From Nannocystis sp. (GTDB lineage Bacteria; Myxococcota_A; Polyangia; Nannocystales; Nannocystaceae), in assembly GCF_016717175.1 (NCBI RefSeq), contig NZ_JADKFZ010000003.1: 37,303 nucleotides of DNA. The stretch is one strand, 5' to 3'. Shown here piece after piece: positions 27 to 34,799 of the stretch. Every line of letters begins with the position of its first letter. The first letter of the stretch is position 1. The translations under genes were made by a program, and so were the position numbers. Under the pieces are notes generated by a model. It was not told the origin of the DNA. It was given only the letters and a program-made list of their open reading frames with translations, and did no database searches.

Positions 27-671
27 ATGAAGGCCGTGTACGCGTGGACGTTGACCGGCGTGGGGCTGACGGCCGCGACGGCGGGGCTGCTCGGGCGCTC
101 GCCGGAGTCGGTGGCGGCGCTGGGTGAGGCGCCGGGCTCGGGGCTGCTATGGCCGGCGCTGGCCGTGCTGGCGCTGGCCTGCGGGACGCGGCTGCACCAG
201 CTGCCGCCGCGGCTGGCGCGGGCGGCCTTCCTCGGCTTCTCGGCGCTGTTCGGGGCGGCGCTGGCGTGGATCGGGGCGGTCACGGCGTTGACGCCGGGGC
301 GGCTCGGGCTGGCGGTGGCCGTGGCCTGCGGGGTGTTCGTGGTCCTGGCCGTGTTCGGCAGCCGGACCCGGCGAGACCTCAGCGGCTGGGGTCCGGTGCT
401 GATGGCGGCGTTGCTCGGGAGCATCATCGCCGTGGTGCTGGACCTCGGGGTGCTGCGGGGTGCCGGGGTGCCGGGCCTCGATACCGGCGTTCAGGCGCTG
501 CTGTGTGGGATCTTCGCGGGTTTTGTGGCGCACGACACCCAGAAGATCAAGCAGATGTACCGCGCCCACGGGCCGCGGGACAACCTCGCGGTGGTCGGGG
601 CGCTCAAGCTGTACCTTGACTTCGTGAACCTGCTGCTGGCGACGCTGCGTCTGGTCGGCGGCTACCGCTGA
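27..671 (+). CDS. Bax inhibitor-1/YccA (TMBIM) family integral membrane protein; probably 5'-partial, with the first ~20 aa upstream of the window
   Basis: Seven hydrophobic segments. The C-terminal motif ALKLYLDFVNLLLATLRLVGG matches the BI-1/YccA signature (..LYLDxINLFL..L). The ORF begins inside the first TM helix (KAVYAWTLTGVGL), and the frame is open to position 3 with no upstream stop. Confidence 0.65.
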   Translation: MKAVYAWTLTGVGLTAATAGLLGRSPESVAALGEAPGSGLLWPALAVLALACGTRLHQLPPRLARAAFLGFSALFGAALAWIGAVTALTPGRLGLAVAVACGVFVVLAVFGSRTRRDLSGWGPVLMAALLGSIIAVVLDLGVLRGAGVPGLDTGVQALLCGIFAGFVAHDTQKIKQMYRAHGPRDNLAVVGALKLYLDFVNLLLATLRLVGGYR

Positions 672-5539: not shown

Positions 5540-6271
5540 TTAGTCGCGGCTGGTCAGGGACATGACGAACTGCAGGATGTACCAGAACATCAGGGCGACC
5601 GAGGCGAACAGGGTCAGCGCGGCGGCCACGTAGGCCTGCGGGTGGTAGTGCCGCATGATGTTGGAGGTGTCGTAGAGGATGTAGCAGGCCGACAGCGCGA
5701 TCATGAAGACCACGAAGAGGATGCCGAGCTGGAACCCGAAGATGAGGCTGAAGGCGATGAGACCCAGGGCGCCGAGGCTGAGGATCATCAGGGCGCCGCG
5801 CATCCACGAGAAGTCCTTCTTGGTGACCATGACGATGCCGGTCAGGGCCGCGAAGATGGCGAGGGTGCTGACGCCGGCGGTCATGATGACGTCCGGGCCG
5901 CCGTAGGCCTGGGCGAGCAGGAGCAGCGGGATGAAGATGACGGCCTCGGCGAGCACGTAGAGGCCGAGCCCGAGGTACTGCATGGGCCGGCTGCTCGAGT
6001 GGCGGGCGAAGTAGTCGGCGATCCAGCTGACGCCCACGAACAGGAGGAGCACCAGGCCCCAGTGGGTCTGCAGCATCGACACGCCGAGCTGGCGCATGAC
6101 GGCTGTGTTGAGGAAGACGAACTCGAGGGCCACGAACGCGGCCATGGCCCCGCCGAGGTGGAGGTAGGTGCGCTCGATGAACTTGGCGCGCTCGGCGACG
6201 CTGGTGCCGGCGTCGGCGTCCTGGCCCTGTTGATTCGGGTAGTACGACTGCTGTTGCTGGTTGAAGCTCAC
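5540..6271 (-). CDS. Bax inhibitor-1/YccA (TMBIM) family membrane protein, paralog of the 27..671 gene
   Basis: N-terminal QQGQ-rich tail, then ERAKFIERTYLHLGGAMAAFVALEF (classic YccA/BI-1 N-terminal signature) and seven TM segments. Length 243 aa. Confidence 0.85.
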   Translation of the reverse strand: MSFNQQQQSYYPNQQGQDADAGTSVAERAKFIERTYLHLGGAMAAFVALEFVFLNTAVMRQLGVSMLQTHWGLVLLLFVGVSWIADYFARHSSSRPMQYLGLGLYVLAEAVIFIPLLLLAQAYGGPDVIMTAGVSTLAIFAALTGIVMVTKKDFSWMRGALMILSLGALGLIAFSLIFGFQLGILFVVFMIALSACYILYDTSNIMRHYHPQAYVAAALTLFASVALMFWYILQFVMSLTSRD

Positions 6272-6383
6272 GGAGACCTCCGGGGCGATGCGCCCGCGAC
6301 CGCCAAGGTAGCGTCCCTGGCGGCGGCGGGCAAGATCGAGACCGGCGTTTACAGGGGCGGGAGAGGGCGGTACGTACGGGCTG

Positions 6384-6884
6384 ATGGCGAAAAAGCGCGA
6401 TCCGATCGGGGCACTGATGGACTTGAACGTCGGGCGTCACCCGCTGACGCGCCTGCAGCGGCTCGCCAACGCGATGCGCGCCGGGGCTGTGCCGCTGGCG
6501 GCGCTCGATGAGACGGTGACGGTGGACGAGAGCAGCGGGGTCGTCACGCGCATGATGGCGCTGTGTGGCCACTGCACGGGGCCGTGTTGCAGCACGCTGC
6601 GGATCCCGATCACGGTGAGTGACGCCAGGCGGCTGGCGCAGCACCTCAAGACGACGGTGGCTCGCCTGCCGCTGCTGGGGAAGGACGGGCTCGAGGAGGA
6701 GGCGGAGGATCTCGCGGGTTATCTGTCGAAGGGGGCGAGCCCGTGCCCGTACTTCGAGCGCGGCTGCTCGGTGCACAGCTTTCGCCCGGACGTGTGCCGC
6801 AGCTTCGGGCTGCACCACTGCATCGGCACGGGCAGCTTCGTGCCCGTGGGGCGCCTGCGTGCGGCCGCGGGAGTCGAGGCCTGA
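6384..6884 (+). CDS. YkgJ-family (UPF0153) CxxCxxCC Fe-S/zinc cluster protein
   Basis: The CGHCTGPCC motif (C-x2-C-x2-CC) plus downstream Cys residues (CPYFERGCSVH..CRSFGLHHC) is typical of the YkgJ / flagellin N-methylase-like cysteine-cluster family. Confidence 0.65.
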   Translation: MAKKRDPIGALMDLNVGRHPLTRLQRLANAMRAGAVPLAALDETVTVDESSGVVTRMMALCGHCTGPCCSTLRIPITVSDARRLAQHLKTTVARLPLLGKDGLEEEAEDLAGYLSKGASPCPYFERGCSVHSFRPDVCRSFGLHHCIGTGSFVPVGRLRAAAGVEA

Positions 6885-12015: not shown

Positions 12016-12069
12016 CGCGCGATGATGGTGTCTTGAGCGTGGTGGTGGGTGGGGGCATCATCCGCGGCC

Positions 12070-12972
12070 ATGCGAAGGATCGTGTTCGAGATGGAGACGT
12101 CGGACCCCGACGACTTCATGACGCTGCTGTGGCTCGCGGATCATCCGGGGGTGGAGCTGGCGGGCGTGGTCGTGACGCCGGGCTCGCAGGATCAGTGCCA
12201 GCTGGTGCGCTGGGGGCTGGATCTGTGCGGGCGGCAGGACGTGCCGGTCGGGGCGCTGCACGGGCCGGGCTGGTGGGCGAGCGCGGACGGGCAGAAGCCG
12301 CGGGTGTCGGGGTTTCACTACAAGGTGTACGGGGCGGCGATCCGCGAGCATGCCGTGGGGGAGGTGAGCGGCGGGCCGGCGTTGCTGGCGAGGTTGATCG
12401 CGGCGGCGGACACGACGGTGGTGGTCGGGTCGGCGCCGAAGAACATCGGCCGGGCGTTCCGTGAATTTCCGGAATTGACGCTGGACTGCTGGGTGCAGCA
12501 GGGCGGGTTTGCGGGCGACAATCTTGTCGCGGCGCCGCTCGAGAAATTTCGCGGGAAGCTGACCTGCCCGAGCTTCAATCCCGGCGGGGCGCCCAAGGAG
12601 ACGCTCGAGCTGCTGGAGTCGCCGCGGATCGCTCGGCGCCTGTTCGTGTCGAAGAACGTGTGCCACGGGGTGCAGTGGCACGCGGAGCTGCAGGCGGGGC
12701 TCAAGCGGCGGCTGGCGGGGACGGCGGTGCGGACCGGGCTGGCGACGATGATCGCGGCGCTCGATCGGTACCTCGAGGATCGCGGCGTGGCCAAGGCGAT
12801 GCACGACCTGGTCGCGGCGGCGTGTGCGATCGATCCGGCGGTGTGTGAATTTGCCGGGGTCGAGATCTATCGCGAGCGCGGCGAGTGGGGGGCGCGCGCG
12901 GCCGAAGGGACGCGGACGGCGATCTCGATCGGGTTCGACGAGCTGCGCTTTGTCGAGGTGCTGGCTGGCTGA
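12070..12972 (+). CDS. nucleoside hydrolase (IU-NH family)-like protein
   Basis: N-terminal MRRIVFEMETSDPDDFMTLLWL resembles the IU-NH aspartate cluster (DTDPGxDDxxAL). The later motifs VVGSAPKNIGRAF (GPLTNIA-like) and HDLVAAACAIDP (HDPLAV..DP-like) and the ~300-aa length also fit. Confidence 0.55.
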   Translation: MRRIVFEMETSDPDDFMTLLWLADHPGVELAGVVVTPGSQDQCQLVRWGLDLCGRQDVPVGALHGPGWWASADGQKPRVSGFHYKVYGAAIREHAVGEVSGGPALLARLIAAADTTVVVGSAPKNIGRAFREFPELTLDCWVQQGGFAGDNLVAAPLEKFRGKLTCPSFNPGGAPKETLELLESPRIARRLFVSKNVCHGVQWHAELQAGLKRRLAGTAVRTGLATMIAALDRYLEDRGVAKAMHDLVAAACAIDPAVCEFAGVEIYRERGEWGARAAEGTRTAISIGFDELRFVEVLAG

Positions 12973-13009: not shown

Positions 13010-13180
13010 GGCGGCCTTGGCGTCGCTGCACTCGGCCTTCTTGGCCGGGCCGCAGTCGCAGGACTTGTTGCCGATGCCGCCGCAGGAGCCGCGCAGGGTC
13101 TTGCCGGCGAAGATGGCCCCGATGGCCATGCCGAACATGACAGCGCCGAGGACGCCGATGGTGAGCAGGATCGTGGTCAT
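13007..13180 (-). CDS. nqrM: Na+-NQR maturation factor NqrM (DUF539), 57 aa; absent from the ORF track because it is below the size cutoff
   Basis: Manual translation of the minus strand gives MTTILLTIGVLGAVMFGMAIGAIFAGKTLRGSCGGIGNKSCDCGPAKKAECSDAKAA. It has a single TM helix followed by GK.L.GSCGG...CDC, the conserved Cys pattern of NqrM. Its ATG overlaps the apbE stop (ATGA). Confidence 0.7.
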   Translation of the reverse strand: MTTILLTIGVLGAVMFGMAIGAIFAGKTLRGSCGGIGNKSCDCGPAKKAECSDAKAA

Positions 13181-14205
13181 GGCGGGTCCAGGGTGGCCGC
13201 TTCGGCGTTGCGGTGCAAGCGGGTGAAGGCGGGGCTCTCGCGCTCGTGGAGGGTGCCGTCGGGGTCGCGGACGAGGAACAGGGCGGGGATGCTGAGCTTG
13301 GTGGCGAGCTCGAGGCCGGCGTCGGGGCCGAGGACGTTGAGGGCGGTGGCCCAGCCGTCCGCGAGCATGGCGCTCGGCTGGAGGACGCTGACCGAGGCGA
13401 GGTGGTGGGCGATCGGGCGCCCGGTCCGCGGGTCGATGGTGTGTGAGCGGCGGACGCCGTCGACCTCGTAGTAGTTGCGGTAGTCGCCGGAGGTGGCGAG
13501 GGCCTGGTCCTCGACGGCGAGCATGCGCTGGACGACGCCGCCGCTGCTGTCGGGGCGCTCGACGCCGAGGCGCCAGGGGCCGCCGTGGCCGGCGCGACCG
13601 CTGGCCATGATCTCGCCGCCGACGTCGACGAGGGTGCGGGTGAAGCCGAGCTCTCGGAGGCGGGCGGTGATGCGGTCGGCGGCGTGTCCGGGGGCGATCG
13701 CGGAGAGCTCGAGGTGGAGGGTGGCGGGGTCCTTGCGGAGCGTGCCGGTGGCGAGGTCGACGGTGAGGTGTTGCCAGCCGATGCTGGGCTTGAGGGCGTC
13801 GAGCTGGGCCTGGGTGGGCTCGGGGGCGTTGGCTTCGCGGCCCTGCGGGCCGAAGCCCCAGGCGGCGATCAGGGGGGCGACGGTGACGTCGAGGGCGCCG
13901 TCGCTGGCGGCGCTGATCTGGTTGGCGGCCTGGACGACCGCGAGGAAGCCGGGCGAGGCGGGGAAGGGGGTGGTGTCGGCGTGGGCGTTGAAGCGCGAAA
14001 TCTCCGAGTCCGGGCGCCAGGTCGACATCTGGCGGTCGACCTCGGCGAGCTCCTCGGCGATGGCGGCCTCGATCTGGCGCTGCTCGGCCTCGCTGAGCGG
14101 GGCGACCACGGTGACCTTGTAGGTCGTGCCCATGGTCGGGCCGGAGAAGGTGAGCGAGGGGGTTGCTGCTGCGTCGGCTTGCTCGAGGCCGGTGGTCGCG
14201 GCCAC
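13177..14205 (-). CDS. apbE: FAD:protein FMN transferase ApbE (flavinylates NqrB/NqrC); the N-terminal signal peptide appears to be encoded in a different frame at 14206..14300 (frameshift or assembly indel)
   Basis: The ApbE motifs TMGTTYKV, FNAHAD, GDYRNYY and HTIDPRTGRPI are present and the length is ~340 aa. The track start is a GTG. A signal-anchor ORF MSDPLRDKYGSRAKVLLPLLLVGFVALSAW begins at 14300, 17 nt after the nqrF stop, in another frame. Confidence 0.8.
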   Translation of the reverse strand: MAATTGLEQADAAATPSLTFSGPTMGTTYKVTVVAPLSEAEQRQIEAAIAEELAEVDRQMSTWRPDSEISRFNAHADTTPFPASPGFLAVVQAANQISAASDGALDVTVAPLIAAWGFGPQGREANAPEPTQAQLDALKPSIGWQHLTVDLATGTLRKDPATLHLELSAIAPGHAADRITARLRELGFTRTLVDVGGEIMASGRAGHGGPWRLGVERPDSSGGVVQRMLAVEDQALATSGDYRNYYEVDGVRRSHTIDPRTGRPIAHHLASVSVLQPSAMLADGWATALNVLGPDAGLELATKLSIPALFLVRDPDGTLHERESPAFTRLHRNAEAATLDPP

Positions 14206-14317
14206 ATGCGCCAGGCGCTGAGGGCGACGAAGCCGACGAGCAAGAGCGGGAGCAGGACCTTCGCCCTGCTCCCGTACTTGTCCCTGAGGGGATCAGACAT
14301 TGATCACGCCGGGGCGA

Positions 14318-15547
14318 TCAACCACCGAAGTCGTCCATCATGATGTTCTCGGGCTCGACGCCGAGGTCGATGAGCATCTTGGTGACGGCGACGTTCATCA
14401 TCGGCGGGCCGCAGATGTAGTACTCGCAGTCTTCGGGGGCGGGGTGGTTCTTCAGGTAGTTCTCGAACAGGACCTGGTGGATGAAGCCCTTGTAGCCGGT
14501 CCAGTTGTCCTCGGGCTTGGGCTCCGAGAGGGCGAGGTGCCACTTGAAGTTGGGGAACTCGCGCTGGATGGCGTCGAAATCCTCGACGTAGAAGGCCTCG
14601 CGCATGGAGCGGGCGCCGTACCAGAAGCTGACCTTGCGGTCGGTCTTGAGGCGCTTGAACTGGTCGAAGATGTGCGAGCGCATCGGGGCCATGCCGGCGC
14701 CGCCGCCGATGAACACCATCTCGTTCTTGGTGTCGCGGGCGAAGAACTCGCCGAAGGGGCCCGAGATGGTGACCTCGTCGCCGGGCTTCCGGCTGTAGAT
14801 GAACGAGGACATGATGCCGGGGGGGGCATCGGGGACCTTCGGGGGCGGCGTGGCGATGCGGACGTTCAGCATGATGATGCCGAACTCCTCGGGGTAGTTG
14901 GCCATCGAGTAGGCGCGGGTGACGGTCTCGGTGACGGTCGAGACGTAGCGCCAGAGGTTGTACTTGTCCCACTCGTCGCGGTACTGGTCCTCGATGATCA
15001 TGTCCGAGTACTTGGCCACGTGGGGCGGGCACTCGATCTGGATGTAGCCGCCGGCGCGGAAGGGGACGACCTCGCCCTCGGGGAGGGCCAGGACGAACTC
15101 CTTGATGAAGGTGGCGACGCCGTCGTTGGACTTGACGTGGCACTTCCACTTGCGCACGCCGAAGATCTCCGCGTGGACCTCGATCTCCATGTCCTGCTTG
15201 ACCTTGACCTGGCAGGACAGGCGGCAGCCCTCGCGGGCCTCGCCCTTGGAGATGTAGCCGAGCTCGGTGGGGTTGATGGTGCCGCCGCCGCTCTTGACGA
15301 TGACCTTGCAGACGCCGCAGGATCCCTTCCCGCCGCAAGCAGACGGGATGAAGATCTTGTTGCTCGCGAGGGTGTTGAGGAGCGTGTTGCCGGCGGGCAC
15401 GCGCAGCGAGTGCGACGGGTCGTGGTTGATACCGATCGTGACGGCCTCGCTGTTGACCAGCCGGGCCTTGGCGGCCAGGAGGACGAACACCAGGGCCAGG
15501 ATCACGAACGTGAACATGGCCACGCCGAGGATGATGATGGTGGACAT
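14318..15547 (-). CDS. nqrF: Na+-translocating NADH:quinone oxidoreductase subunit F
   Basis: Internal start [22 protein letters not shown] (TM anchor) preceded by aggagg. The 2Fe-2S ferredoxin motif is [13 protein letters not shown]...CRLSCQ. FAD/NADH-binding motifs RAYSMAN and GGGAGMAPM are present; 409 aa. The upstream 189 Arg-rich codons of the ORF-track entry are rejected. Confidence 0.9.
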
Positions 15548-15573
15548 CGCGGTGGTCCTCCTAGATCTGGGAG

Positions 15574-16191
15574 CTAGAGCTGGATGCCGGAGAAGGCGAG
15601 GAAGCCGATGGCCATCAGGCCAGCGAGGATGAAGGCGATGCCGAGGCCACGCAGGGCGTGGGGGACGTTGCTGTAGCGCATCTTCTCGCGGATGGCGGCC
15701 AGGGCGATGATGGCCATGGCCCAGCCGATGCCGGAGCCGATGCCGTAGACGGCGGCCTCGCCGAAGTTGTACTCGCGCTGCTCCATGAACAGCGAGGCGC
15801 CCAGGATGGCGCAGTTGACCGCGATGAGCGGGAGGAACACGCCCAGCGCCGCGTAGAGCTTGGGGGCGAAGCGGTCGACGGCCATCTCGACGACCTGGAC
15901 CACGGCGGCGATGGTGCCGATCTGGACCAGGAAGGAGAGGAAGCTGAGGTCGACGCTGGCGAGATCGGGCGAGATCCAGGCCAGGGCGCCCTCGCGGAGC
16001 AGCGAGGCGAGGATCGCCTGGTTGAGCGGGACGCAGACGGCGAGCACGAAGATGACGGCGGCGCCGAGGCCGATCGCCGTCTCGACCTTCTTCGACACGG
16101 CGAGGAAGGAGCACATGCCCAGGAAGAAGGCCAGGGCCATGTTCTCGACGAAGATCGACTTGACCGCGATGTTGAGGAGATGCTCGAACAT
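15574..16191 (-). CDS. nqrE: Na+-NQR subunit E
   Basis: 205-aa polytopic protein [33 protein letters not shown] with conserved Cys residues at GMCSFLAV and AVNCAILGA (NqrD/E Fe-centre ligands). Confidence 0.9.
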
Positions 16192-16195
16192 ATGG

Positions 16196-16819
16196 TTACT
16201 CCTTCTCCATCTGGGCCGGCTTGGCGGTGCGCAGGATCCAGATCATGATGCCGATCAGGAAGAAGGCCGAGGGCGGCATGAGCATCATGCCGTTGGTGTA
16301 GTACCAGCCGCCGTCGTTGACGGTGCTGAAGATCTCGATGCCGAACAGCTTGCCGGAGCCGAACAGCTCGCGGATAAAGCCGATGCCCATCAGCACCATG
16401 CTGTAGCCGAGGCCGTTGCCGATGCCGTCGAGGAAGGAGATGCCGGGCTTGTTGGCCATGGCGTAGGCCTCGGCGCGGCCCATGACGATGCAGTTGGTGA
16501 TGATGAGGCCGACGAAGACCGACAGCTGCTTGCTGATCTCGAAGACGAAGGCCTTGAGGATCTGGTCGGTGACGATCACCAGCGAGGCGATCACCGTCAG
16601 CTGGACGATGATGCGGATGCTGTTGGGGATGTAGTTGCGGATCAGGCTGATCGCCAGGTTGGAGAAGGCGGTCACGACCGTGAGGCCGATCGACATGACC
16701 AGCGCCGTCTCGAGCTTGGTGGTCACGGCCAGCGCGGAGCAGATGCCGAGCACCTGCAGGGCGATGGGGTTGTTGTTGAAGAGGGGGTCGAAGAGGACGC
16801 CCTTGGTCTGCTTGTCCAT
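16196..16819 (-). CDS. nqrD: Na+-NQR subunit D
   Basis: 207 aa; [21 protein letters not shown] and [14 protein letters not shown] carry the conserved Cys residues. Paralogous to NqrE. Confidence 0.9.
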
Positions 16820-16823
16820 GGGT

Positions 16824-17609
16824 CTAGCTCCTCCCCTGGGACGCCTTGAACTTGGCCATGTAGGGGCCGAAGCCGTCCTTGCCGAACCAGAACTTCATCA
16901 GGTTGCTGACGCCGTTGCTGGTGATGGTGGCGCCGGACAGGCCGTCGACGTGGTGGGGGTCGGTCTTGGGGTCGCCGGCGCGGCCCTTGATGACGGTGAG
17001 GGCGGGCTGGCCCTTGTCGTCATAGATCTTGCGGCCGGGCCACAGGGCCTTCCACTTGGGGTTGTCGACCTCGCCGCCGAGGCCGGGGGTCTCCGCGTGG
17101 GCGTAGAAGGTGATGCCCTTGATCGTGTTGGCGTCCTTGTCGACGGCGAGGTAGCCGTAGAGCACGGACCACAGGCCGTAGCCCTCGATCGGGAGGATCA
17201 GGGTGTCGGTCTTGCCGTCCTTGAGGACGTGGTAGACGAGCGCGTTGTTGGGCAGGCGGAACACCTTGGCGGCGTTCTCGGGGGCGGTGGTGCTGGTGGC
17301 CGGGTCTTTTTGGGCGCGGCGCTGGTCGAAGGTCTCGGCCTTGATGGCCTTGTCCTCGGCGCCGGTCTTGAGGGTGATGACCTCGCGGCGGATGTTCTTG
17401 GTGAACAGGGCCGTGACCTCCTCGGGGGTGGCCTGTTGACCGGGCTTCATCAGGCCGGCGACCAGGAGGACCTGCTTCTGCTGGTCGAGGACCTTGTTCT
17501 CGGCCTGGCGCGGCCCGAGGGCGACGGCGGCCCCGGCGACGCCGATGCCGCAGATGACGCAGACGGCGACGGCGAAGCCGATCGTGTAGCCAGTACTATC
17601 GCGTGCCAT
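16824..17609 (-). CDS. nqrC: Na+-NQR subunit C (covalent FMN)
   Basis: N-terminal TM anchor. FMN-attachment motif [15 protein letters not shown] (SGAT threonine, the ApbE target). 261 aa. Confidence 0.9.
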
Positions 17610-18831
17610 AGAGAGCCATCCTCCGCTTGATGTTGGCCTGGACGATGAAGTAGTCGATGAGCGGGGCGAACATGTTCATGAACAGGATCGCCAGCATCAT
17701 GCCCTCGGGGTAGGCCGGGTTGATGACCCGGACCAGGACCACCATGAAGCCGATGCCGAAGCCGTAGAGGACCTTGCCCCACGCGGTGAAGGCCGAGGAC
17801 ACGGGGTCGGTGGCCATGAACACGGCGCCGAAGGCCCAGCCGCCGAGCACGAAGTGCCACATCGGCGGGAGGCCGAACAGGGAGTTGGTCGGTGAGCCGA
17901 TCCAGTTGAGCAGCGAGGCGGTGGCGAAGGTGCCGAGGGCGACGCCGAACATCGTCCGCCACGAGCCCACACCCGTGATGATCAGGATGGCGGCGCCGAT
18001 GAGGCAGGCGAGGGCGGAGGTCTCGCCCATCGAGCCCGCCTCGAGGCCGATGAAGGCGTTCCACCAGTCGGTGTGCGCCATCATGGCCGGGGTGTTGGCG
18101 GCGGCCTGGGCCAGGGCGGTGGCGCCGGACAGGCCGTCGGCGAGGGCGGCCGGGGTGGCGAGGTTGGCGGCGATCCAGGGGCCGTCGCCCGAGATCTGGC
18201 CGGGGTAGGCGAAGAACAGGAAGGCGCGGGCGACCAGGGCGGGGTTCAGCACGTTCATGCCGGTGCCGCCGAAGACCTCCTTGCCGATGACGACGCCGAA
18301 GCTGATGCCGAGGGCGACCTGCCACAGCGGGATCGTGGGCGGGAGGGTCAGCGGGAACAGCAGGCCGGTGACGAGGAAGCCCTCGTTGATCTCGTGCTTG
18401 CGGGCGACGGCGAAGATGACCTCGGCGTGGCCGCCGATGAGCATCGTGACCAGGTAGACCGGCAGGAAGTAGATCGCGCCGTGGATCATGCACGCGAGGA
18501 TGCTGGTCGGGTCGAAGGCGAAGCCGAGCGCGGTGTACAGCCAGGTCTGCCAGTTGGCCAGGGCGCTGGCGCCGTGGGCGATGGCGTTGTTGGCCTGGAA
18601 GCCGGTGTTGTACATGGCGAACAACACGCAGGGCAGCAGCGCGACGACGACGGTGATCATCATCCGCTTGAGGTCGATGGCGTCGCGGACGTGCGAGCTG
18701 GCCTTGGTGACGTCCTTCGGCGTGTACAGGAAGGTGTCGGTGGCCTCGTAGAGCGGGTAGAGCTTCTCGAGCTTGCCGCCCTTGTGGAACGGCTTTTCGG
18801 CCTTGTCGAGCAGGTTGCGCAGGAACTGCAT
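17596..18831 (-). CDS. nqrB: Na+-NQR subunit B (covalent FMN)
   Basis: Internal start [30 protein letters not shown]; 411 aa polytopic. The FMN motif [12 protein letters not shown] is present. It overlaps the nqrC start by 14 nt. The 5' extension in the ORF track overlaps nqrA and is rejected. Confidence 0.9.
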
Positions 18832-18836
18832 GGGTG

Positions 18837-20198
18837 TCAGCCCTCTTTCTCGATCTCGCTGAGGTTCTTGCGGAGGACGACCCCGAAGTCGGCCTTGCCG
18901 GGGTCGACGAAGGTGCAGAGCGCGAGGTCCTCCTCGTCGAGCTCGAGCGCGCCGAGCTGGATGGCGCGGTCGGTGTCGCCGACGAGGAGGGAGCGCAGGA
19001 GGAAGGTCGGGTGGATGTCGAGCGGCATGATGCGCTCGTACATGCCGATCGGGACCATGGCCCGCGGCGAGCCGTTGGTGGTGGTGGTCATGGCGAACTT
19101 CTTGCCGAAGAGCTTGCCGAGGAAGCCGAAGTAGACCGGAATGATGGAGAATTTTCCGGTGCCGGGGGCCAGCCAGCCGAGCAGCTCGCGGTGCCGACCC
19201 TCGAGCAGGGCGGAGACCTGGATGTGGTAGCGGCCGAGGAAGCCGAGGGCCTCGCCGCTGGCGTGGCGGCCCGAGAGCACCGAGCCGGAGACGACGCGGT
19301 TCTCGCCGGGCTTGAGCTCGCCCGTGGTGAGCTCGTCGAGGCTGGCGCCGAGCTGGGTGGCGAGCAGGCGGGGGCGTTCCACGACGGGGCCGGCGAGGCT
19401 GACGACGCGGCGGGAGTCGAGCTGGCCGGTGGCGAACAGGACGCCGACGGCGACGACGTCCTGGTAGCCGATGTGCCAGGCGACGCGCTCGCGGTCGACG
19501 GGCGAGAGCATGTGGATGTGGGTGCCGACGTTGCCGGCCGGGTGCAGGCCGTCGAAGTCCTCGACCTGGATGCCACTCGGAACCTCGATCTGCAGCTTGC
19601 TCGACTTGCAGAGGAAGGTCTTGGGGGCGAGCTTGCTGAGCACCGCGAGGCCGCGCTTGAAGTCGGCCTCCTTGCCCTTGAGCACGACGGCGACGTCGGC
19701 GGCGTGGGGGTTGGTGTCGACGGCGGTGACGAAGAGGGCGCGGGGGCTGCCGTCCGGCGCGGGCACGCGGGAGAAGGGGCGCATGCGCAGGGCGGTCCAC
19801 AGGCCCGACTCGAGCAGGAGGGCCTTGACGCTGTCGGCGCTGAGCTGCTCCGGGGCGGTGCCGGCGGTGGTGGAGTAGCTGGCGAAGCTGACCTGGTCGT
19901 CGGAGCCGTCGGGCTCGATGACCAGGGACAGGAAGGCCCGCTTCTCGCCGCGGTGGATGGCGGTGACGGTGCCGGCGACGGGGGCGGTGAAGCGGACGCC
20001 GGGGGCCTTGCGGTCCTCGAACAGGAGCTGGCCGCGCTTGACCTTGTCGCCGACCTTGGCCTCCATCTTGGGCTTCATGCCGATGTAGTCGGCGCCGAGG
20101 AGGGCGACGCGCTTGGCCGTGGCCGCGGGGGCGATGGTCTGCTGCGGGTCGCCGGCGAGGGGCAGGTCGAGGCCCTTGGTGATGCGGTGTGCTGCCAT
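18837..20198 (-). CDS. nqrA: Na+-NQR subunit A
   Basis: 453 aa starting [20 protein letters not shown], the typical NqrA N-terminus; first gene of the operon. Confidence 0.9.
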
Positions 20199-20465: not shown

Positions 20466-22475
20466 CTATGCGGGCCCCCGCGGCAAGTCGGCCGCGATCG
20501 GCAATCGGTCGTAGCGCATGTTGCGGCGGGCCGGTGCGAAGCCGGCCAGGCGGATGTGGGTCTCGACCTGGGCGCTGGTCATCATGAAGTGGGCGCCGGC
20601 GGTGGAGACCACGTTCTCCTCGATCATGATCGAGCCGAAGTCGTTGGCGCCGAAGCGGAGGGCGACCTCGCCGATCTCCGGGCCGAGCGTGGGCCACGAC
20701 ACTTGCAGGTTCGGGATGTTGTCGAGGTATAGCCGGGCAAGTGCCTGGATTCGCAGGTAACGCAGGGGGCTGGTGTCGTCGCGGAGTTTGAGCCGCGTGC
20801 CTTCGGCCTGGAACGGCCAGGTGATGAAGGCGGTGAAGCCGTGGGTGTCGTCTTGCAGGCGGCGGAGGCGGTCCATGTGGAGGAGCAGCTGTTCGGAGCT
20901 CTCCTGGAAGCCGAACACCATGGTCGCGGTGGTCTTCATGCCGAGGTCGTGGGCCTCGCGCATGACGGCGAGCCACTCGTCGGCGGTGTTCTTGAACGGG
21001 GAGATGCGGGTGCGGATCTCGTCGTCGAGGATCTCGGCGCCGCCGCCGGGGAGGGAGTCCATGCCGGCGGCGCGCAGGCGGACGAGGACCTCGCGGATCG
21101 GGAGGTCGGCGAGCTCGGCGATGTGGATGATCTCGGTGGGGGAGAGGGCGTGGAGGGCGAGCTTGAAGTTCTGCTTGGTCCAGCGGAACAGGTCCTCGTA
21201 GTAGGCGAGGTCGAGGGCGGGGTTGAGGCCGCCTTGCAGGAGGATCTGGACGCCGCCGAGGGACTCGGTCTCGCGGAACTTCTCGGCCAGGGTCTCGCGG
21301 CTCAGGACGTAGCCGCCGGCGGCGCCGGGCGGCGTGTAAAAATTGCAGAACTTGCAGCGAGTTACGCAGATGTTTGTGTAGTTGACGTTGCGGTCGATGA
21401 TGTAGGTGACGACGCCGTCGGGATGGAGCATCTGGCGGCGGTGGTCGGCGGCGGCGCCGAGCGCGTTGAGGTCGGCGTTCTCGTAGAGGAAGATCCCCTC
21501 GGCGAGATCGAGGCGGCCGCCGTTTGCGGCACGGGCGAGGAGCTCGTCGACCTGCATGGCCGGACGCGGCTGACGGGCGACGCGGAGGGCCTCCGATTCG
21601 CCGCCGCCGGCGAAGCGGACGTGGATGGTGTCGTCGTCGGCGAGGCCGGGGATCTGGACCAGGCCGGCCTCGCGGGCGCGGGTGAGGAACTCGACCAGGC
21701 CCTCGCGCTCCTTGGTGCTGAGGCTGTAGCGGATCGATCGCCGGAGGTAGTTGGCGTAGGCGTTCTCCGAGAGGATGGTCGGGTCGCCCCCCTGCGAGAG
21801 GGCTGCGAGGCGCGTCTGGCGGTAGGCGCGGGCGAGGTCCTCGGCGTGCTTGAGGCCGTAGGCGCGGGCCTGCTGCAGGGCGGCGACGTGGGCCGGGGTG
21901 AGCAGGCCGGGGCGGGCGGCCCAGAACGCGAACACGAAGGGGAGGCCGGTGGTTGCCTGCCAGAGGTTGCCGAGGTCGTGGACGTGTGGACCGGAGAGGC
22001 CGAGGGCGGCGTCGCCGATGATGAGGGCGGCGTCGCGGCCGTGGACGCGGGCGAGGCCCTCGCGGTGCGGGGCCGTGACGAACTCGGGGTGGACGCCGCG
22101 GGCGGCGAGCAGGAGCTGGACGAGCAGGGCGGAGCTGCGGGAGGCGGCGTCGAGGTGAACGCGGGCGATGTCGACGAGCGGGACCTCGGCGACGAGCACG
22201 ACGGAGAGGACGGGGCCGCGGCAGCCGATCCCGACCTCGGGGACGACCTCCCACTCGGGGTGGGCCGCGTAGGCGCCGACCGGGACGAGGGCCACGTCGC
22301 ACTCACCCTGCTCGAGCTGGCGGGCGCACTCGGAGGGCAGGGCGGTGTGGACCTCGAAGAGCGGCTGGCCGTCGGGGTCGAGGAAGCGGGGGGCGCCGGG
22401 GAGGTGCTCGCCGGTCAGCGGGTGCACGAGCGGCCAGGCGTTGAGGAAGGAGACGGCGCAGACTCGCAGCGGCAT
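20466..22475 (-). CDS. mqnA: In-frame fusion of MqnA (chorismate dehydratase, futalosine pathway) with a MqnE/MqnC-family radical-SAM enzyme (aminodeoxyfutalosine synthase or cyclic dehypoxanthinyl-futalosine synthase)
   Basis: The N-terminal half MPLRVCAVSFLNAWPL...GDAALGL...TGLPFVFAFWAAR matches MqnA (PF02621) motifs. The C-terminal half MQVDELLARAANGGRLDLAEGIFLYENADLNALGAAA...VTYIIDRNVNYTNICVTRCKFCNFY carries the radical-SAM CxxxCxxC and the MqnC/MqnE N-terminal pattern. No stop codon separates the halves. The start is chosen at the internal Met (22475); the ORF-track start at 22571 would add 32 aa. Confidence 0.75.
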   Translation of the reverse strand: MPLRVCAVSFLNAWPLVHPLTGEHLPGAPRFLDPDGQPLFEVHTALPSECARQLEQGECDVALVPVGAYAAHPEWEVVPEVGIGCRGPVLSVVLVAEVPLVDIARVHLDAASRSSALLVQLLLAARGVHPEFVTAPHREGLARVHGRDAALIIGDAALGLSGPHVHDLGNLWQATTGLPFVFAFWAARPGLLTPAHVAALQQARAYGLKHAEDLARAYRQTRLAALSQGGDPTILSENAYANYLRRSIRYSLSTKEREGLVEFLTRAREAGLVQIPGLADDDTIHVRFAGGGESEALRVARQPRPAMQVDELLARAANGGRLDLAEGIFLYENADLNALGAAADHRRQMLHPDGVVTYIIDRNVNYTNICVTRCKFCNFYTPPGAAGGYVLSRETLAEKFRETESLGGVQILLQGGLNPALDLAYYEDLFRWTKQNFKLALHALSPTEIIHIAELADLPIREVLVRLRAAGMDSLPGGGAEILDDEIRTRISPFKNTADEWLAVMREAHDLGMKTTATMVFGFQESSEQLLLHMDRLRRLQDDTHGFTAFITWPFQAEGTRLKLRDDTSPLRYLRIQALARLYLDNIPNLQVSWPTLGPEIGEVALRFGANDFGSIMIEENVVSTAGAHFMMTSAQVETHIRLAGFAPARRNMRYDRLPIAADLPRGPA

Positions 22476-22620
22476 GGCGCGGCGATTGTAGAGGAGGGGC
22501 GGCGGTGCGGCGAGGCGTGCGACCGGGTGGTCGCAGGCGATCGCGGCGGGCGCCAGCAATGGCGACGGCACGCGGGGTGGCGTGCCGATGCATCGCGCAG
22601 GAGGGCCGGCGGGCCTCGGC

Positions 22621-24338: not shown

Positions 24339-25545
24339 TGTGCAGCTCGTGGGCGAGGGCCTGGGCGAGGGCGTCGTAGTCTTCGTCGCGGTTGTAGGCC
24401 TGGGCGGAGATGCGGATCAGGCGGCGGGGCGGGGCGGGCCACACGGGCCAAACGGGCCAAACGGGAATGGGGACCTCGATGTGGTGGCGCTCGTAGAGGG
24501 CGAGCTGGAGCGGGTCGGCGTGGAACGGGGAGGCCAGACCGCCGGGGCCGTCGGGGAGGGGCAGGGCGGCGAGGTTGCCGAGCATGGCGTCGGGGGCCGG
24601 GGCGGCGACGCCGAGGACGGCGGCGAGGCGGTCGCGCCCGCGGAGCAGCTGGGCGTGGTTGCGGGCGCGGAGCTCGGGCCAGCCGCCGGGGAACAGCTCG
24701 CCGAGCCAGCGGATCGCCGGGGCGACGCACAGCCAGGGGGTCGGGTCGTCGGTGCCGGTCCAGTCGAACTCCTCCCACAGGGCCGGGCGGCCGCGGGCGG
24801 TGAGGTTGTAGCCGTGGCTGATGATGGTCGGGTGGAGGCCCGATTGGCGATCGCGGCGGACGTGCAAGATGGCGGCGCCCTTGGGGGCGCAGACCCACTT
24901 GTGGAAGTTGCCGGTGTAGTAGGCGGCGCCGAGGGCGTCGAGCTCGAGCGGGACCATGCCGGGGCCGTGGGCGCCGTCGACCAGGGTGTCGACGCCGCGC
25001 TCACGCAGGGCCGCGACGATCTCGGCGACCGGGAAGATGAGGCCGGTCGGGCTGGTGATGTGGTCGACGAGGGCGAGGCGCGTGCGCGGGCTGACGCCGG
25101 CGAGCAGCGGGGCGACGACCTCGTCGGGGCCGGCGATCGGGAAGGGCACGTGGACGACGACGAGGCGGGCGCCGCTGCGCTCGCAGAGGTGGCGCAGGGC
25201 GTTGTGGCAGGCGCCGTAGACGTGGTCGGTGGTGAGCAGCTCGTCGCCGGGTTCGAGGCGCAGCGAGCCGAGCACGGCGGCGACGCCGGCGGTGGCGTTG
25301 CGGACGAAGGCGAGGTCCTCCGGGCGGGCGCCGAGGAAGCCGGCGACCTGCTCACGGGCGTGGTCGAGGAGGGGCCCCAGGGCGTGGATGTAGAAGTGGA
25401 CCGGCTCGCGCTCGATGACGGCGCGCAGGCGGTCCTGCTCGGCGAGGATGACCCGCGGGCAGGCGCCGAAGGAGCCGTGGTTGAGGAAGACGACCGCGGG
25501 GTCGAGGGTCCAGTGGGCGCGGAGATCGTCCGCCGTCGGCCGCAT
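24325..25545 (-). CDS. Class V (fold type I) PLP-dependent aminotransferase / isopenicillin-N-epimerase-like
   Basis: FLNHGSFGACP near the N-terminus; the PLP-lysine motif GNFHKW; ~400 aa. Start MRPTADDLRAHWTLDPAVVFLNHGS. Confidence 0.8.
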   Translation of the reverse strand: MRPTADDLRAHWTLDPAVVFLNHGSFGACPRVILAEQDRLRAVIEREPVHFYIHALGPLLDHAREQVAGFLGARPEDLAFVRNATAGVAAVLGSLRLEPGDELLTTDHVYGACHNALRHLCERSGARLVVVHVPFPIAGPDEVVAPLLAGVSPRTRLALVDHITSPTGLIFPVAEIVAALRERGVDTLVDGAHGPGMVPLELDALGAAYYTGNFHKWVCAPKGAAILHVRRDRQSGLHPTIISHGYNLTARGRPALWEEFDWTGTDDPTPWLCVAPAIRWLGELFPGGWPELRARNHAQLLRGRDRLAAVLGVAAPAPDAMLGNLAALPLPDGPGGLASPFHADPLQLALYERHHIEVPIPVWPVWPVWPAPPRRLIRISAQAYNRDEDYDALAQALAHELHITAS

Positions 25546-28466: not shown

Positions 28467-31400
28467 ATGCGCCGCACCGCCCTGTCTCGCCCGTCCGTCG
28501 CGCTGGTCTCGCTGGGTCTCGGGCTGAGTCTCGTGACCTGCGCCCCGAAGGCGCCGAGCAGCCCGCCAGCGCTCGCCCACACGCCCGGCGCGCCCGCCAC
28601 CAAGCCGACACCTGTCCCGAAGGACAGCACGGGGAAGGCCGAGCCGGAGGTCCCGAAGTGGGACGTGAACGACCCGCCGGGCGAGGAGCAGGAGGTCAAG
28701 CTGGACGTCCGCGAGGGCACGTGGATGGCGCTCGACGTGAGCCCGGATGGGCGCGAGCTCGTGTTCGACCTGCTCGGCGACCTGTATCTCCTGCCGATCG
28801 CGGGCGGCGAGGCGCGGGCGCTGACGCAGGGGATGGCCTGGGACATGCAGCCGCGCTTCAGCCCGGACGGGCAGTGGATCGCGTTCACCAGCGACCGCGG
28901 CGGCGGCGACAACGTGTGGGTGCTCGCGCGGCCGACGGCTGCGGGGGCGGTGGTGGCGGAGCCGAAGCCAGAGCCCAAGCAAGTCACGAAGGAGGACTTC
29001 CGGCTGGTGAACAGCCCGGTGTGGTCGCCCGACGGGAACTTCATCGCGGTGCGCAAGCACTTCACCAAGCACCGCAGCCTCGGCACCGGCGAGATCTGGC
29101 TGTACCACGTGGCGGGCGGCAAGGGCGTGCCGATGACGGAGAAGGTCAACGACCAGAAGGATGTCGGCGAGCCGGCGTTCTCGCCGGACGGGGCCCATCT
29201 TTACTTCAGCCTCGACAACACGCCGGGGGCGACCTTCGAGTACAACAAGGACCCGTACGGCGAGATCTACGCGATCAAGCGGCTGGAGCGGGCCAGCGGG
29301 CGCATCGAGACGCTGGCCGGCGGGCCCGGGGGCGCGGCCCGGCCGACGCCGTCGCCGGACGGCAAGTCGCTGGCGTTCATCCGTCGCGTCGGCGGCACCG
29401 CGGGCGCGCCGGACAAGACGACGCTGATGGTCCGCGAGCTGCAGTCGGGGGCGGAGCGCCCGGTGTTCGCGGGGCTCGACCGCGACATGCAGGAGACCTG
29501 GGCGATCCATGGCGTGTACCCGGCGATCGCGTGGACGCCGGACAGCCGCGAGCTGGTGTTCTGGGCCGCGGGCAAGCTGTGGCGCACGCGGGCCGACGGC
29601 AGCCAGGCGGCGCCGACCGAGATCCCGTTCCACGTGAGCGGGACCCGCAAGGTGGCGCCGGCGCTGCGCTTCGCGGTCGAGGTGGCGCCGCGCGAGGTCG
29701 ACGTGAAGGCGCTGCGCGGGGTGACGGTGAGCCCGGACGGCGGCCGCGTGGTCTACCAGGCGCTCGGCCACCTGTACGTACGGACATTGCCCGAAGGACA
29801 GGCGAAGCGGCTGACCAAGCAGAGCGACCACTTCGAGCAGGACCCGGCCTTCTCGCGCGACGGCAAGCAGATCGTGTTCACGACCTGGGACGACCAGGCG
29901 CTCGGCAGCGTGCGCACGATCGCGGTCGGCGGCGGCAAGGAGCGGGTGATCAGCGATCGGCCGGGGCACTACGTGGCGCCGCAGTGGAGCCCGGACGGCA
30001 AGCAGGTGGTCGTGCAGCGGATCGGCGGGGGCTGGACGCGCTCGCCGACCTGGTCGCAGGAGCAGGGCATCTACGCGATCGAGGTGAAGACGGCGAAGGC
30101 GACGCTGGTCCGCCGCGACGGGGCCGAGCCGCACTTCGGGGCGGCGAGCGATCGGCTGTTCTTCAGCAGCTACGACGACGACAAGGTGGAGCTGCGCAGC
30201 GTGGAGCTGGACGGCAGCGACGAGCGCACGCACGTGAAGACGGAGGGGGCGAGCCGCCTGCGGGTGTCACCGGACGGGCGCTGGCTGGGCTGGACGGAGG
30301 GCTTCCAGGCGCTGATCGCCCCGCTGCCGCCGACCGGGCGGACCATCGAGCTGGGGCCGAAGGCGGAGGGGCTGCCGGTCGCCAAGGTGAGCCGCGACGC
30401 GGGCGAGCACGTGCACTGGTCGGGCGACAGCCAGCGCCTGCACTGGTCGCTGGGGCCCGAGCTGTACACGCGCGAGCTGAAGGACGCGTTCGCGTTCGTG
30501 GCCGGGGCCCCGGCGGAGCTGCCCAAGCCGGCGGAGACGGGGCTGGCGATCGGCTTCAAGGCGCCCGCGGCGGTGCCGACGGGGACGCGGGCGATCGTCG
30601 GGGCGCGGGTGATCACGATGCGCGGCGACGAGGTGATCGAGGACGCGACGATCGTGATCAACGGCGATCGCATCAGCGCGATCGGGCCGTCGGCGCAGCT
30701 GCAGGCGCCGGCCGGGGCGGAGGTCGTGCGGGCCGAGGGCAAGACGATCATCCCGGGGCTGATCGACGTGCACGCGCACGGCAGCCAGGGCGAGGACGGC
30801 ATCACGCCGGAGCAGAACTGGCTGCACTACGCGATGCTGGCGTACGGGGTGACGACGGTGCACGACCCGAGCAACGACACGGCGTCGATCTTCGCGGCGA
30901 GCGAGATGCAGCGGGTCGGGGCGGTGGTCGGGCCGCGCATCTTCTCGACCGGGACGATCCTGTACGGGGCGCAGGCGCCGTTCAAGGCGGAGATCGCCAG
31001 CCTCGAGGACGCGCGCGGGCACCTGCGCCGGCTCAAGGCGATCGGGGCCTTCTCGGTCAAGAGCTACAACCAGCCGCGGCGAGAGCAGCGGCAGCAGGTG
31101 ATCGCGGCGGCGCGCGAGCTCGGGATGATGGTGGTGCCGGAGGGCGGCGCGCTGTTTCACCACAACATGACGATGGTCGCCGACGGGCACACGGGCATCG
31201 AGCACGCGCTGCCGGTGGCCAGCGCCTACGCGGACGTGATGCAGTACTGGGGGGCGACCAAGGTCGGCTACACGCCGACGCTCGGGGTGGCCTACGGGGG
31301 CTTAGGCGGCGAGAACTACTGGTACGCGCACACGCAGGTGTGGGAGGACAGCCGGCTGCGGCGCTTCGTGCCGGCCAACGCGTTCGAGCCGCGCGCCCGT

Positions 31401-33662: not shown

Positions 33663-33839
33663 GGCCGGGTCACGCTAGTTCAGGCGGCGCGGGCTGTCGA
33701 CTCCCTGGCCGTGGCGATCCCTGGTGTGGTCGCGGGGTGAGCCCTGACTGGGCTGGGCTGTGTCCGGCCGTCGTGCTCGCGCGGGTGTTGGGCAGGCGGC
33801 CGACGCCGGGCTGCCAGGGCCTTCGGGGCGCCTGCCATC

Positions 33840-34799
33840 GTGGCGTGTACGGGCGCTGCGGGGGCCCTGGCGGCGATCCTTGCGCGGTGGCCAGGCGGCC
33901 GCGGGGCGTGCGATAGTCCCGGCCCCGTGCTGCTCGCCCTCATCAAGACCCTGCGCCCACGGCAGTGGATCAAGAACCTGTTCGTCGGTTTACCGCTGAT
34001 GTTCGGGCATCGCCTCACCGACCCGGACAGCCTGCTGGTGACCGCGGGGGCGGTGGCCCTGTTCTGCGTGATCTCCGGCTGCGTGTACGTGCTCAACGAT
34101 CTGGTCGACGTCGAGAAGGACCGGGTCCACCCCAAGAAGCGCATGCGGCCGATTCCCTCGGGGCAGCTGCCGGAGGCGGTGGCGCGGCGCTTCGTGGTCG
34201 TCGTCGTGCCGGTGTGCCTCGGGCTCGGCTACTGGTTGCAGCCGTGGTTCGCCGCGGCGCTCGGGGCCTACTTCGCGCAGAACCTGGCCTACAGCTTTCG
34301 CCTCAAGCAGATCGCGTACGTCGATGTGCTGTCGATCGCGACCGGCTTCATCCTGCGCGTGCTGGCCGGGGCCTTCGCGCTCGAGGTGCCGGCGTCGCTG
34401 TGGCTGCTGGCCTGCACCGGGCTGATGGCGATGTTTATGGGCTTCGGCAAGCGGGCGCACGAGCTGGCGGCCGGCGAGGGGGCGACGAAGCAGCGGCAGG
34501 CGCTCGCGGGCTACGACCTCGCGACCCTGCGGGTGATCCTGTACGGGCTCGCGGTGGCGACGGTCGGGGTCTACACGGCCTACACGCTGAGCGGCCACGT
34601 GGCCCAGCTGTTCGGCAGCAACCGCCTGGTCTACACGGTGGGCTTCGCGGCGGTCGGGGTGCTGCGCTTCATCCACCTGGCGACCACGCGTCACGAGGCC
34701 GAGAGCCCGACCGAGGAGATGCTCAAGGACCCGCTGTTCATGCTGAACTTCCTGGCCTGGCTGGGGCTGCTGGCGGCGATCCTGTACGGCTGGGTGTGA
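33840..34799 (+). CDS. UbiA-family prenyltransferase, decaprenyl-phosphate phosphoribosyltransferase-like
   Basis: LIKTLRPRQWIKNLFV..., then the Asp-rich motif YVLNDLVDVEKDRVHPKKRMRPIPSG (NDxxDxxxD of UbiA), then a second motif region. The start is uncertain: the ORF-track ATG at 33840, or GTG at 33927 immediately before LLALIKTLRPRQW. Confidence 0.65.
   Translation: MACTGAAGALAAILARWPGGRGACDSPGPVLLALIKTLRPRQWIKNLFVGLPLMFGHRLTDPDSLLVTAGAVALFCVISGCVYVLNDLVDVEKDRVHPKKRMRPIPSGQLPEAVARRFVVVVVPVCLGLGYWLQPWFAAALGAYFAQNLAYSFRLKQIAYVDVLSIATGFILRVLAGAFALEVPASLWLLACTGLMAMFMGFGKRAHELAAGEGATKQRQALAGYDLATLRVILYGLAVATVGVYTAYTLSGHVAQLFGSNRLVYTVGFAAVGVLRFIHLATTRHEAESPTEEMLKDPLFMLNFLAWLGLLAAILYGWV

Follow-up and report, generated by a model that had tools for sequence, protein, structure and literature searches.

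Results

One reading frame joins MqnA to a radical-SAM enzyme

We analysed a 37,303-nucleotide stretch of contig NZ_JADKFZ010000003.1 of Nannocystis sp. (NCBI RefSeq assembly GCF_016717175.1), hereafter the window, in which a gene of the minus strand is predicted to encode, as one chain, MqnA and MqnC, two enzymes of the futalosine pathway of menaquinone (MK) biosynthesis. The list of open reading frames (ORFs) and their translations contained an uninterrupted minus-strand ORF at 20466-22571, which amounts to 701 aa when started at a GTG codon and to 669 aa plus the stop codon (20466-20468) when started at the ATG at 22475. In the alignment, the N-termini of the orthologues line up with this ATG and match 'MPLRVCAVSFLN'. 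The in-frame upstream extension of 32 codons to the GTG (22476..22571, minus strand) is absent or unalignable in 13 of the 14 orthologues of the corresponding alignment (A1), being found only in the near-identical call P0001, and is probably untranslated. Since the orthologue N-termini match the ATG at 22475 and the extension is not conserved, positions 20466..22475 of the minus strand are the likely, and complete, coding sequence.

Pfam searches with the translated protein placed VitK2_biosynth (PF02621) at residues 3-269, Radical_SAM (S-adenosylmethionine; PF04055) at 364-535 and CofH_C (PF19288) at 545-661, so that the three domains of an MqnA-MqnC single-chain fusion are found in one ORF, as they are in the orthologues. 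The GC content at third codon positions (GC3) stays between 0.84 and 1.00 in each 50-codon window of the ORF, the junction included, with no stop and no change of frame. The original prediction, made from the sequence of this DNA alone, of a single ORF at 20466-22475 fusing MqnA to a radical-SAM half was thus confirmed by the reading frame, the continuous GC3 and the Pfam domains. The motifs that it quoted were also recovered in the translation and the orthologue alignment, as FLN (containing Asn12), IGDAAL, LPFVFAFW and CVTRCKFC, and the junction, which we located at 21558-21608, agrees with its estimate of 21560-21640.

The N-terminal half corresponds to MqnA

The MqnA (chorismate dehydratase) domain comprises residues 1-289 (21609..22475, minus strand) and ends in the conserved last strand 'HVRFA'. 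It scored 167.6 bits against PF02621, with a gathering threshold (GA) of 26, over the full length of the profile (positions 1-252 of 252). This family takes in both MqnA and the paralogous MqnD, and no NCBIfam family matched the domain even at E<=10. Because NCBIfam has no model matching the domain, MqnA and MqnD were separated through searches of the Protein Data Bank (PDB) and control sequences. A phmmer search against all PDB chains returned only chorismate dehydratases (SCO4506, 2NXO/7AHR, at 1.5e-28; 2I6E; 6O9A), and none of the solved MqnD structures (2CZL, 3A3U) was among the matches at E<=10. As controls we used a Desulfobacteraceae locus (L027), in the genome of which a genuine MqnA (matching 7AHR at 2.7e-33) and a genuine MqnD (matching 2CZL at 3.4e-74) are both encoded; the N-terminal domain aligned to the former with 105 bits and to the latter with 35 bits. 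The possibility that this half is MqnD, which would make the fused steps consecutive (MqnC, then MqnD), was rejected on the same grounds. On these comparisons, the N-terminal half is an MqnA and not an MqnD.

The residues of ScMqnA that matter, according to the MqnA mechanism paper (PMC9672406), are Asn17, Ser86, the Ser109-Arg110-x-Ser112 loop, Gly151 and Tyr242. Their equivalents here are Asn12 (for Asn17), Ser91 (for Ser86), the S112-R113-S114-S115 loop and Gly154 (for Gly151). Among 84 orthologues, Asn12 and Gly154 are invariant (84/84 each), the Ser91 position is Ser or Thr in 84/84, and the loop carries Ser in 84/84 and Arg in 83/84; the Tyr242 equivalent is conserved as well.

The C-terminal half corresponds to MqnC and not to MqnE

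Residues 307-669 (20469..21557, minus strand) make up the MqnC (cyclic dehypoxanthinyl futalosine synthase) radical-SAM domain, with matches of 74 bits to PF04055 and 125 bits to PF19288. Its CxxxCxxC motif, CVTRCKFC (Cys370, Cys374 and Cys377; 21345..21368, minus strand), is of the [4Fe-4S]-binding type, and the three cysteines of this motif (residues 370-377) are invariant in 84/84 orthologues. The domain passed the cutoff of the MqnC equivalog model TIGR03699 (446.2 bits against 428.1, over model positions 2-341 of 342) and failed those of both MqnE models, TIGR03700 (311 bits against 434.55) and NF006276 (214 bits against 560). It is 36% identical to the MqnE of a close relative (L085), versus 47-55% to standalone MqnC proteins of other phyla. 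Furthermore, L003, L004 and L085 encode a true standalone MqnE (520-524 bits against TIGR03700) immediately upstream of the fused gene, and standalone MqnE proteins are abundant in the clade. MqnE was consequently rejected for this half, given the failed curated cutoffs and the separate mqnE gene of the relatives, and by these models and identities the C-terminal half is an MqnC. With both sets of motifs in place, the two active sites look intact in the translated protein.

These assignments change part of what was originally predicted. The C-terminal half had been described as an MqnE/MqnC-like radical-SAM enzyme of the futalosine pathway, which stands as regards clade and pathway and fails as regards MqnE, the HMM (hidden Markov model) assignment having passed TIGR03699 and not TIGR03700. 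The further proposal that the two halves would catalyse the consecutive MqnA and MqnE steps was not borne out, as the C-terminal half being MqnC makes them steps 1 and 4, and with it falls the idea of channelling: the argument for 3-enolpyruvyl-benzoate fails because the fused steps are not consecutive.

The connector probably derives from an intergenic spacer

Between both halves lies a connector, 'GGGESEALRVARQPRPA' (residues 290-306; 21558..21608, minus strand), which comparison with unfused relatives and its conservation point to as the former mqnA-mqnC intergenic spacer. In this alignment 'IHVRFA' is the last MqnA strand, 'GGGESEALRVARQPRPA' takes the place of the former spacer, and 'MQVDELLARAANGGRL' aligns with the start of standalone MqnC. 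His285 is invariant, and Phe288, Ala300 and Arg301 are at least 90% conserved, in the Nannocystaceae-type proteins, and the distance across the connector is held to 30-36 residues in the 84 orthologues.

The original prediction had remarked that the second half begins at its own Met. Met307 (ATG at 21555-21557) does coincide with the ancestral MqnC start codon in the alignment, but it is not conserved as a start: among the 84 fused orthologues the position is Met in 31 and Leu in 38, with Leu or another residue in 53 altogether. A conserved internal start is unlikely, because this position is Met in just 31/84 and Leu in 38/84, and no Shine-Dalgarno-like purine run was present before the Met307 ATG in the sequence inspected. 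As judged from the alignment, Met307 is a vestige of the old MqnC start codon.

An AlphaFold2 model built on the 84 orthologues reached a mean predicted local distance difference test (pLDDT) score of 91.2 and a predicted template modelling score (pTM) of 0.85, with a pLDDT of about 84 at the connector. This suggests a compact two-domain protein with a fixed inter-domain arrangement. In Foldseek searches, the N-terminal domain matched MqnA structures with template modelling (TM) scores of 0.80-0.86 at a root-mean-square deviation of about 2.7 Å, and the best match of the C-terminal domain was the MqnE structure 6XIG (E = 8e-30, TMt 0.84, 29% identity).

The fusion is conserved in independently sequenced genomes

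A second assembly (CAXWJW010000043.1 of GCA_964267895.1; L001) is 99.3% identical to window positions 10470-32582, that is, over 22 kb, with 124 mismatches and 12 gap openings (17 gapped positions), all of the gaps lying outside the fused gene. Within the gene, both assemblies differ by 11 substitutions, which cause three amino-acid changes (protein P0001), and by no indel. Elsewhere in this comparison there is one 9-bp indel at 24443-24451, and substitutions cluster at 29000-30000; relative to L001, the window represents either another assembly or a very close strain. The requirement for a wider comparison, raised with the original prediction, was covered by the 120 best-scoring homologues, 119 of which are fused and keep all three domains at 63-100% identity, the exception being a 476-aa protein with just the radical-SAM and CofH_C domains. 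Fused homologues include those of Nannocystis pusilla, Enhygromyxa salina, Plesiocystis pacifica SIR-1 and Pseudenhygromyxa. A sequencing error that had erased a stop codon, a concern also voiced at the time, is not borne out, in view of the second assembly without an indel in the gene and of the fused orthologues; stop loss is instead placed at the evolutionary origin of the gene. From these alignments we conclude that the fusion is real, old and conserved in this myxobacterial group.

Origin and distribution of the architecture

The distribution was studied in loci that represent a sample of GTDB species genomes among the matches listed, and their counts are therefore not a census. The sampled loci were re-analysed ORF by ORF with our own domain HMMs. 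All the Myxococcota loci (L001-L011, comprising Nannocystaceae, 'Myxococcales', Polyangiaceae and two loci labelled 'uncultured proteobacterium') carry a single MqnA-MqnC ORF, as does one metagenome-assembled genome (MAG) of the Gemmatimonadota (L026). In L003-L011 and L085 the fused gene is immediately preceded by a standalone mqnE. Acidobacteriota, Planctomycetota, other Gemmatimonadota and Nitrospirota have separate adjacent genes in the order (mqnE-)mqnA-mqnC, and the Desulfobacterota order is mqnE-mqnC-x-mqnA.

Among about 34 sampled unfused mqnA-mqnC pairs, 13 (in L012, L013, L015, L017-L019, L023-L025, L030, L039, L047 and L072) are in the same frame with one stop codon between the genes (TGA in nine, TAG in two, TAA in two). 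Together with four more pairs having extra stops, 17 of about 34 share the frame, slightly above the one-third expected by chance. In the unfused relatives MqnA ends with '...GL.P....L.F..A*' and the Met of MqnC follows 0-16 codons later. The loss of one stop codon would explain the architecture, because the last strand, the spacer and the MqnC start map onto unfused in-frame neighbours, and the fusion most likely arose in this way in a myxobacterial ancestor, as far as such comparisons can tell.

Beyond these loci, an exhaustive search of 1.8 billion representatives clustered at 50% identity added at least 15 clusters, of about 590-700 aa, in which a single stretch aligns with both halves at 33-53% identity. 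Three of them were confirmed by Pfam as MqnA plus radical-SAM, and MqnC was the best-scoring model for all nine two-domain clusters tested, six of which passed its cutoff. The best matches of the distant fused clusters (33-47% identity) to named loci are weak (32-50%).

Other combinations of the same enzymes were also observed. The metagenomic protein P0125 (1121 aa) is MqnA-MqnE-MqnC, with both radical-SAM halves exceeding their cutoffs, and P0163 (906 aa), likewise metagenomic, is MqnE-MqnA-(MqnC); P0122, P0124, P0131 and P0146 are double radical-SAM proteins. In L006 (4057-7908), mqnE shares its frame with the fused gene, and just one stop codon separates the two.

The fused gene precedes a Na+-NQR operon in its closest relatives

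Downstream on the same strand, and separated from the fused gene by 267 nt, a cluster of genes for the Na+-translocating NADH:quinone oxidoreductase (Na+-NQR) spans 13010..20198. By Pfam, tblastn with the L085 proteins and translation, it consists of nqrA (18837-20198), nqrB (17596-18831), nqrC (16824-17609), nqrD (16196-16819), nqrE (15574-16191), nqrF (14318-15547) and apbE (about 13183-14290, with a frame break near 14190), followed by nqrM (13010-13180), whose Pfam NqrM match is just at the threshold (22.2 bits against 22), all of them on the minus strand. The nqrM ORF encodes 57 aa with one transmembrane helix and a Cys-rich tail, and is kept after apbE in L001, L002, L085 and L086. In the window, apbE is split between two frames near 14160-14190 and has one G fewer than in L001. 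L001 has a break of its own in nqrB (13741-14978), where two additional bases (at window positions 18037 and 18282) divide the gene into calls of 283 and 144 aa; the window carries intact copies of nqrB and nqrF. Both frame breaks are probably assembly indels and not signs of pseudogenes.

The location of the fused gene beside Na+-NQR, pointed out in the original prediction, is shared with the closest relatives: the fused gene directly precedes nqr, in the same order, in the window and L001, in N. pusilla (L002), and in L085 and L086, and nqr is not beside it in Pseudenhygromyxa (L003) or in L004, a genome of 11 Mb. The adjacency is thus conserved in the Nannocystis-like clade only. In L085, a metagenomic locus with a fused protein 90% identical to the present one, the order is ubiE - ubiX - a gene for a 245-aa hypothetical protein - mqnE - mqnA::mqnC - nqrABCDEF - apbE - a small ORF. 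In L003 and L004 the fused gene ends a full MK operon, consisting of genes for a polyprenyl synthase, a UbiE-type methyltransferase, UbiX, a hypothetical protein, MqnE and the fusion. L004 has two further genes nearby, one for a UbiA-family prenyltransferase closest to the MqnP models and one for a UbiD-type decarboxylase whose best match is the menaquinone decarboxylase model, both under the respective cutoffs.

In the present genome, the upstream MK genes (ubiE-ubiX-hypothetical-mqnE) are separated from the fused gene, which is preceded by an unrelated gene for a Kazal-domain protein. Our own MqnA, MqnC and MqnE HMMs match no other ORF of the 37-kb window, and no promoter- or terminator-like sites were found around the fused gene by a scan that is uninformative in DNA of 70% GC. 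A UbiA-family gene at 33741-34796 (plus strand) was considered as MqnP and rejected, its best match being decaprenyl-phosphate phosphoribosyltransferase (225 bits against a cutoff of 234); it is followed by a D-aminoacyl-tRNA deacylase gene and preceded, on the opposite strand, by murJ. Just beyond the nqr cluster, a gene at 12049-12972 (plus strand) encodes a 307-aa protein with a sub-threshold match to inosine-uridine nucleoside hydrolases (IU_nuc_hydro; 33.1 bits against a GA of 34.2) and no NCBIfam match. The futalosine pathway needs a nucleosidase, but this gene is not at that position in N. pusilla.

The ORF of 197-245 aa between ubiX and mqnE is conserved (L085, 7500-8237; L003, 8047-8781; L004, 8171-8764); it belongs to no Pfam family and weakly resembles the C-terminal region of MqnE/CofH (27-32 bits). 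Its product may be an accessory factor of the futalosine pathway that is as yet uncharacterised. Weakly CofH_C-like ORFs were also seen upstream of mqnA, mainly in Acidobacteriota (L012, L021, L023, L035, L037, L042, L046, L053 and L074). Finally, two paralogous genes for Bax1-I membrane proteins, at 27-671 (plus strand) and 5543-6436 (minus strand), lie less than 6 kb apart and flank genes for a SpoIID-domain protein and an M1 aminopeptidase in the window, and a Bax1-I gene is also found near the fused gene in L004.

Discussion

We consider it highly probable that the gene at 20466-22475 encodes a bifunctional MqnA-MqnC enzyme with both sites active, made by the loss of a stop codon between coupled neighbours. 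The N-terminal Venus-flytrap MqnA domain would dehydrate chorismate to 3-enolpyruvyl-benzoate (step 1) and the C-terminal radical-SAM MqnC domain would cyclise dehypoxanthinyl futalosine (DHFL) to cyclic DHFL (step 4). The steps in between would fall to MqnE and a nucleosidase, possibly joined by a deaminase, and the following step to MqnD, all of them encoded at other sites. Starting from the ancestral order mqnE-mqnA-mqnC, the stop between two tightly coupled in-frame neighbours would have been lost in an ancestor of the Nannocystaceae and Polyangiaceae-type Myxococcota, and the former spacer would have turned into a 17-residue connector of constrained length. The putative benefit would be a 1:1 co-expression and co-localisation of both enzymes, with no direct channelling of an intermediate, and the Na+-NQR operon downstream of the gene in the Nannocystis-like clade would consume the quinone.

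Several observations weigh against this proposal. Ser86 is termed absolutely conserved in MqnA by PMC9672406, and its equivalent is Thr in 75/84 of the fused orthologues, being Ser in the present protein. The TIGR03699 score exceeds the cutoff by a mere 18 bits, and none of the top 50 Foldseek PDB matches is a chain described as MqnC, the nearest solved relative of the C-terminal domain being MqnE. The mqnD, mqnE and nucleosidase genes of this genome lie outside the window. The compact packing of the domains is read from the pTM of the model alone, and the two activities of the fused protein, its origin by stop loss and any advantage of joining the enzymes are inferred, not drawn from enzymology.

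A fusion of MqnA with MqnE would channel 3-enolpyruvyl-benzoate between steps 1 and 2, and the C-terminal domain does belong to the MqnC/MqnE/CofH clade, with MqnE (6XIG) as its closest solved structure and 311 bits on the MqnE model. We regard it as very improbable, as this score is far under 434.55 while the MqnC model was passed, the identity to the relative's MqnE (36%) is lower than to standalone MqnC (47-55%), and a genuine MqnE of 520-524 bits is encoded directly upstream in relatives, in a clade where standalone MqnE is abundant. Even less credible would be an artefact in which a sequencing or assembly error, either a lost stop or a compensated frameshift, had joined two genes. Both assemblies do have indel errors elsewhere (apbE in the window, nqrB in L001), and other phyla separate the two genes by just one in-frame stop; against this, the gene is free of indels when the two assemblies are compared, over 100 orthologues sequenced independently are fused, those of complete genomes of cultured species included, the residues and the length of the connector are conserved, and GC3 is continuous over the junction. 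We judge the chance of such an artefact to be close to nil.

Two other explanations accept the fused chain and differ in what it would do. The MqnA-like domain could be non-catalytic, a ligand-binding, regulatory or scaffold module for MqnC, with another MqnA performing step 1. The Venus-flytrap fold is a classic binding module, most fused orthologues have Thr in place of Ser86, and MqnA and MqnC are not consecutive, so that a purely catalytic rationale for the fusion is not obvious. This we find improbable, since the equivalents of Asn17, the hydroxyl of position 86 (Ser itself in this protein), the S-R-x-S loop, Gly151 and Tyr242 are conserved, the place of mqnA in the conserved order mqnE-mqnA-mqnC is taken exactly by the fused gene, and the MK operons of L003, L004 and L085 contain no second PF02621-type ORF. 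Alternatively, an internal start at Met307 could also give free MqnC, besides the fused protein. The alignment of Met307 with the ancestral MqnC start, and its retention in 31/84 orthologues, are compatible with such dual products, which are nonetheless unlikely given Leu or another residue in 53/84, the lack of a Shine-Dalgarno-like run and the ordered connector of the predicted structure.

The fusion is well supported but ordinary, and its architecture is already in public databases for cultured species. The Nannocystaceae fusions of P. pacifica SIR-1 (PPSIR1_11761), E. salina, N. pusilla and Pseudenhygromyxa sp. WMMC2535 have the same three domains and connector motif and are 63-93% identical over 98% or more of their length; P0001 (GCA_964267895.1), which differs by three residues, is in NCBI. 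Only the genomic context varies among them: Pseudenhygromyxa, L004 and L085 have a full MK operon, and here and in N. pusilla the fused gene stands alone beside nqr. UniRef calls three entries (from Enhygromyxa and Plesiocystis) 'Multifunctional fusion protein', a flag that UniProt sets automatically, and NCBI names several fused entries 'cyclic dehypoxanthinyl futalosine synthase', that is, after the MqnC half alone. Full-text searches, which do not cover subscription-only literature, found no description of an MqnA-MqnC fusion, nor did keyword searches of the MqnA mechanism paper, of the main evolutionary survey of the pathway and of a 2026 survey of quinone distribution (PMC9672406, PMC3914697, PMC13386864).

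Compared with standalone MqnA (SCO4506 of S. coelicolor, 2NXO/7AHR; D. radiodurans, 2I6E; 6O9A), the N-terminal half shares the fold, the catalytic Asn and Ser, the carboxylate-binding loop and the glycine of IGDAA, and differs in being covalently followed by MqnC and in an insert after the first helix, 'GEHLPGAPRFLDPDGQP' (about residues 22-38), which is absent from distant homologues. With standalone MqnC (TIGR03699) the C-terminal half shares the full-length model, the CxxxCxxC motif and CofH_C, but here the N-terminus is tethered to MqnA and the start Met is unconserved. MqnE (TIGR03700; 6XIG, 6XI9) is of the same radical-SAM subfamily and fold, at 29-36% identity to this half, which stays under the MqnE cutoff. 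The merging of neighbouring genes of cofactor-pathway operons is also seen in the other pathway fusions (P0125, P0163 and the double radical-SAM proteins) and in CofGH/FbiC (NF006687). Their partner sets and orders differ, and CofG and CofH perform one overall transformation, whereas MqnA and MqnC perform steps 1 and 4.

The existence of several kinds of fusion leads us to raise, as a speculation that we hold with low confidence, the idea that MqnA, MqnE and MqnC form a physical complex, a futalosine 'metabolon', even as separate proteins. This is based on the recurrent fusions (A-C, E-A-C, A-E-C and the E-C double radical-SAM proteins), which may be a Rosetta-stone signal and of which the A-C type was seen in Myxococcota and the one Gemmatimonadota MAG, on the fact that mqnA and mqnC are almost always tightly adjacent, and on the compact A-C interface predicted by the model, in which the connector has a fixed length. 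If true, the fused protein of the myxobacteria would offer a natural way into the structure of MqnC and a test of the complex.

The significance of the fusion lies mainly in annotation and pathway reconstruction, and it opens no long-standing question. As NCBI names for these proteins of about 650-710 aa give MqnC alone, automated pathway callers could report 'mqnA missing' for genomes of the Nannocystaceae and of the Polyangiaceae type. The quinone of these myxobacteria is MK, according to the species descriptions, and the contiguity of the MK genes with the Na+-NQR operon in L085 fits the use of MK by Na+-NQR in this clade. For the pathway itself, the fusion would mean that two futalosine enzymes whose steps are not consecutive can function within a single chain, and it gives a modest hint that MqnA and MqnC may associate physically.

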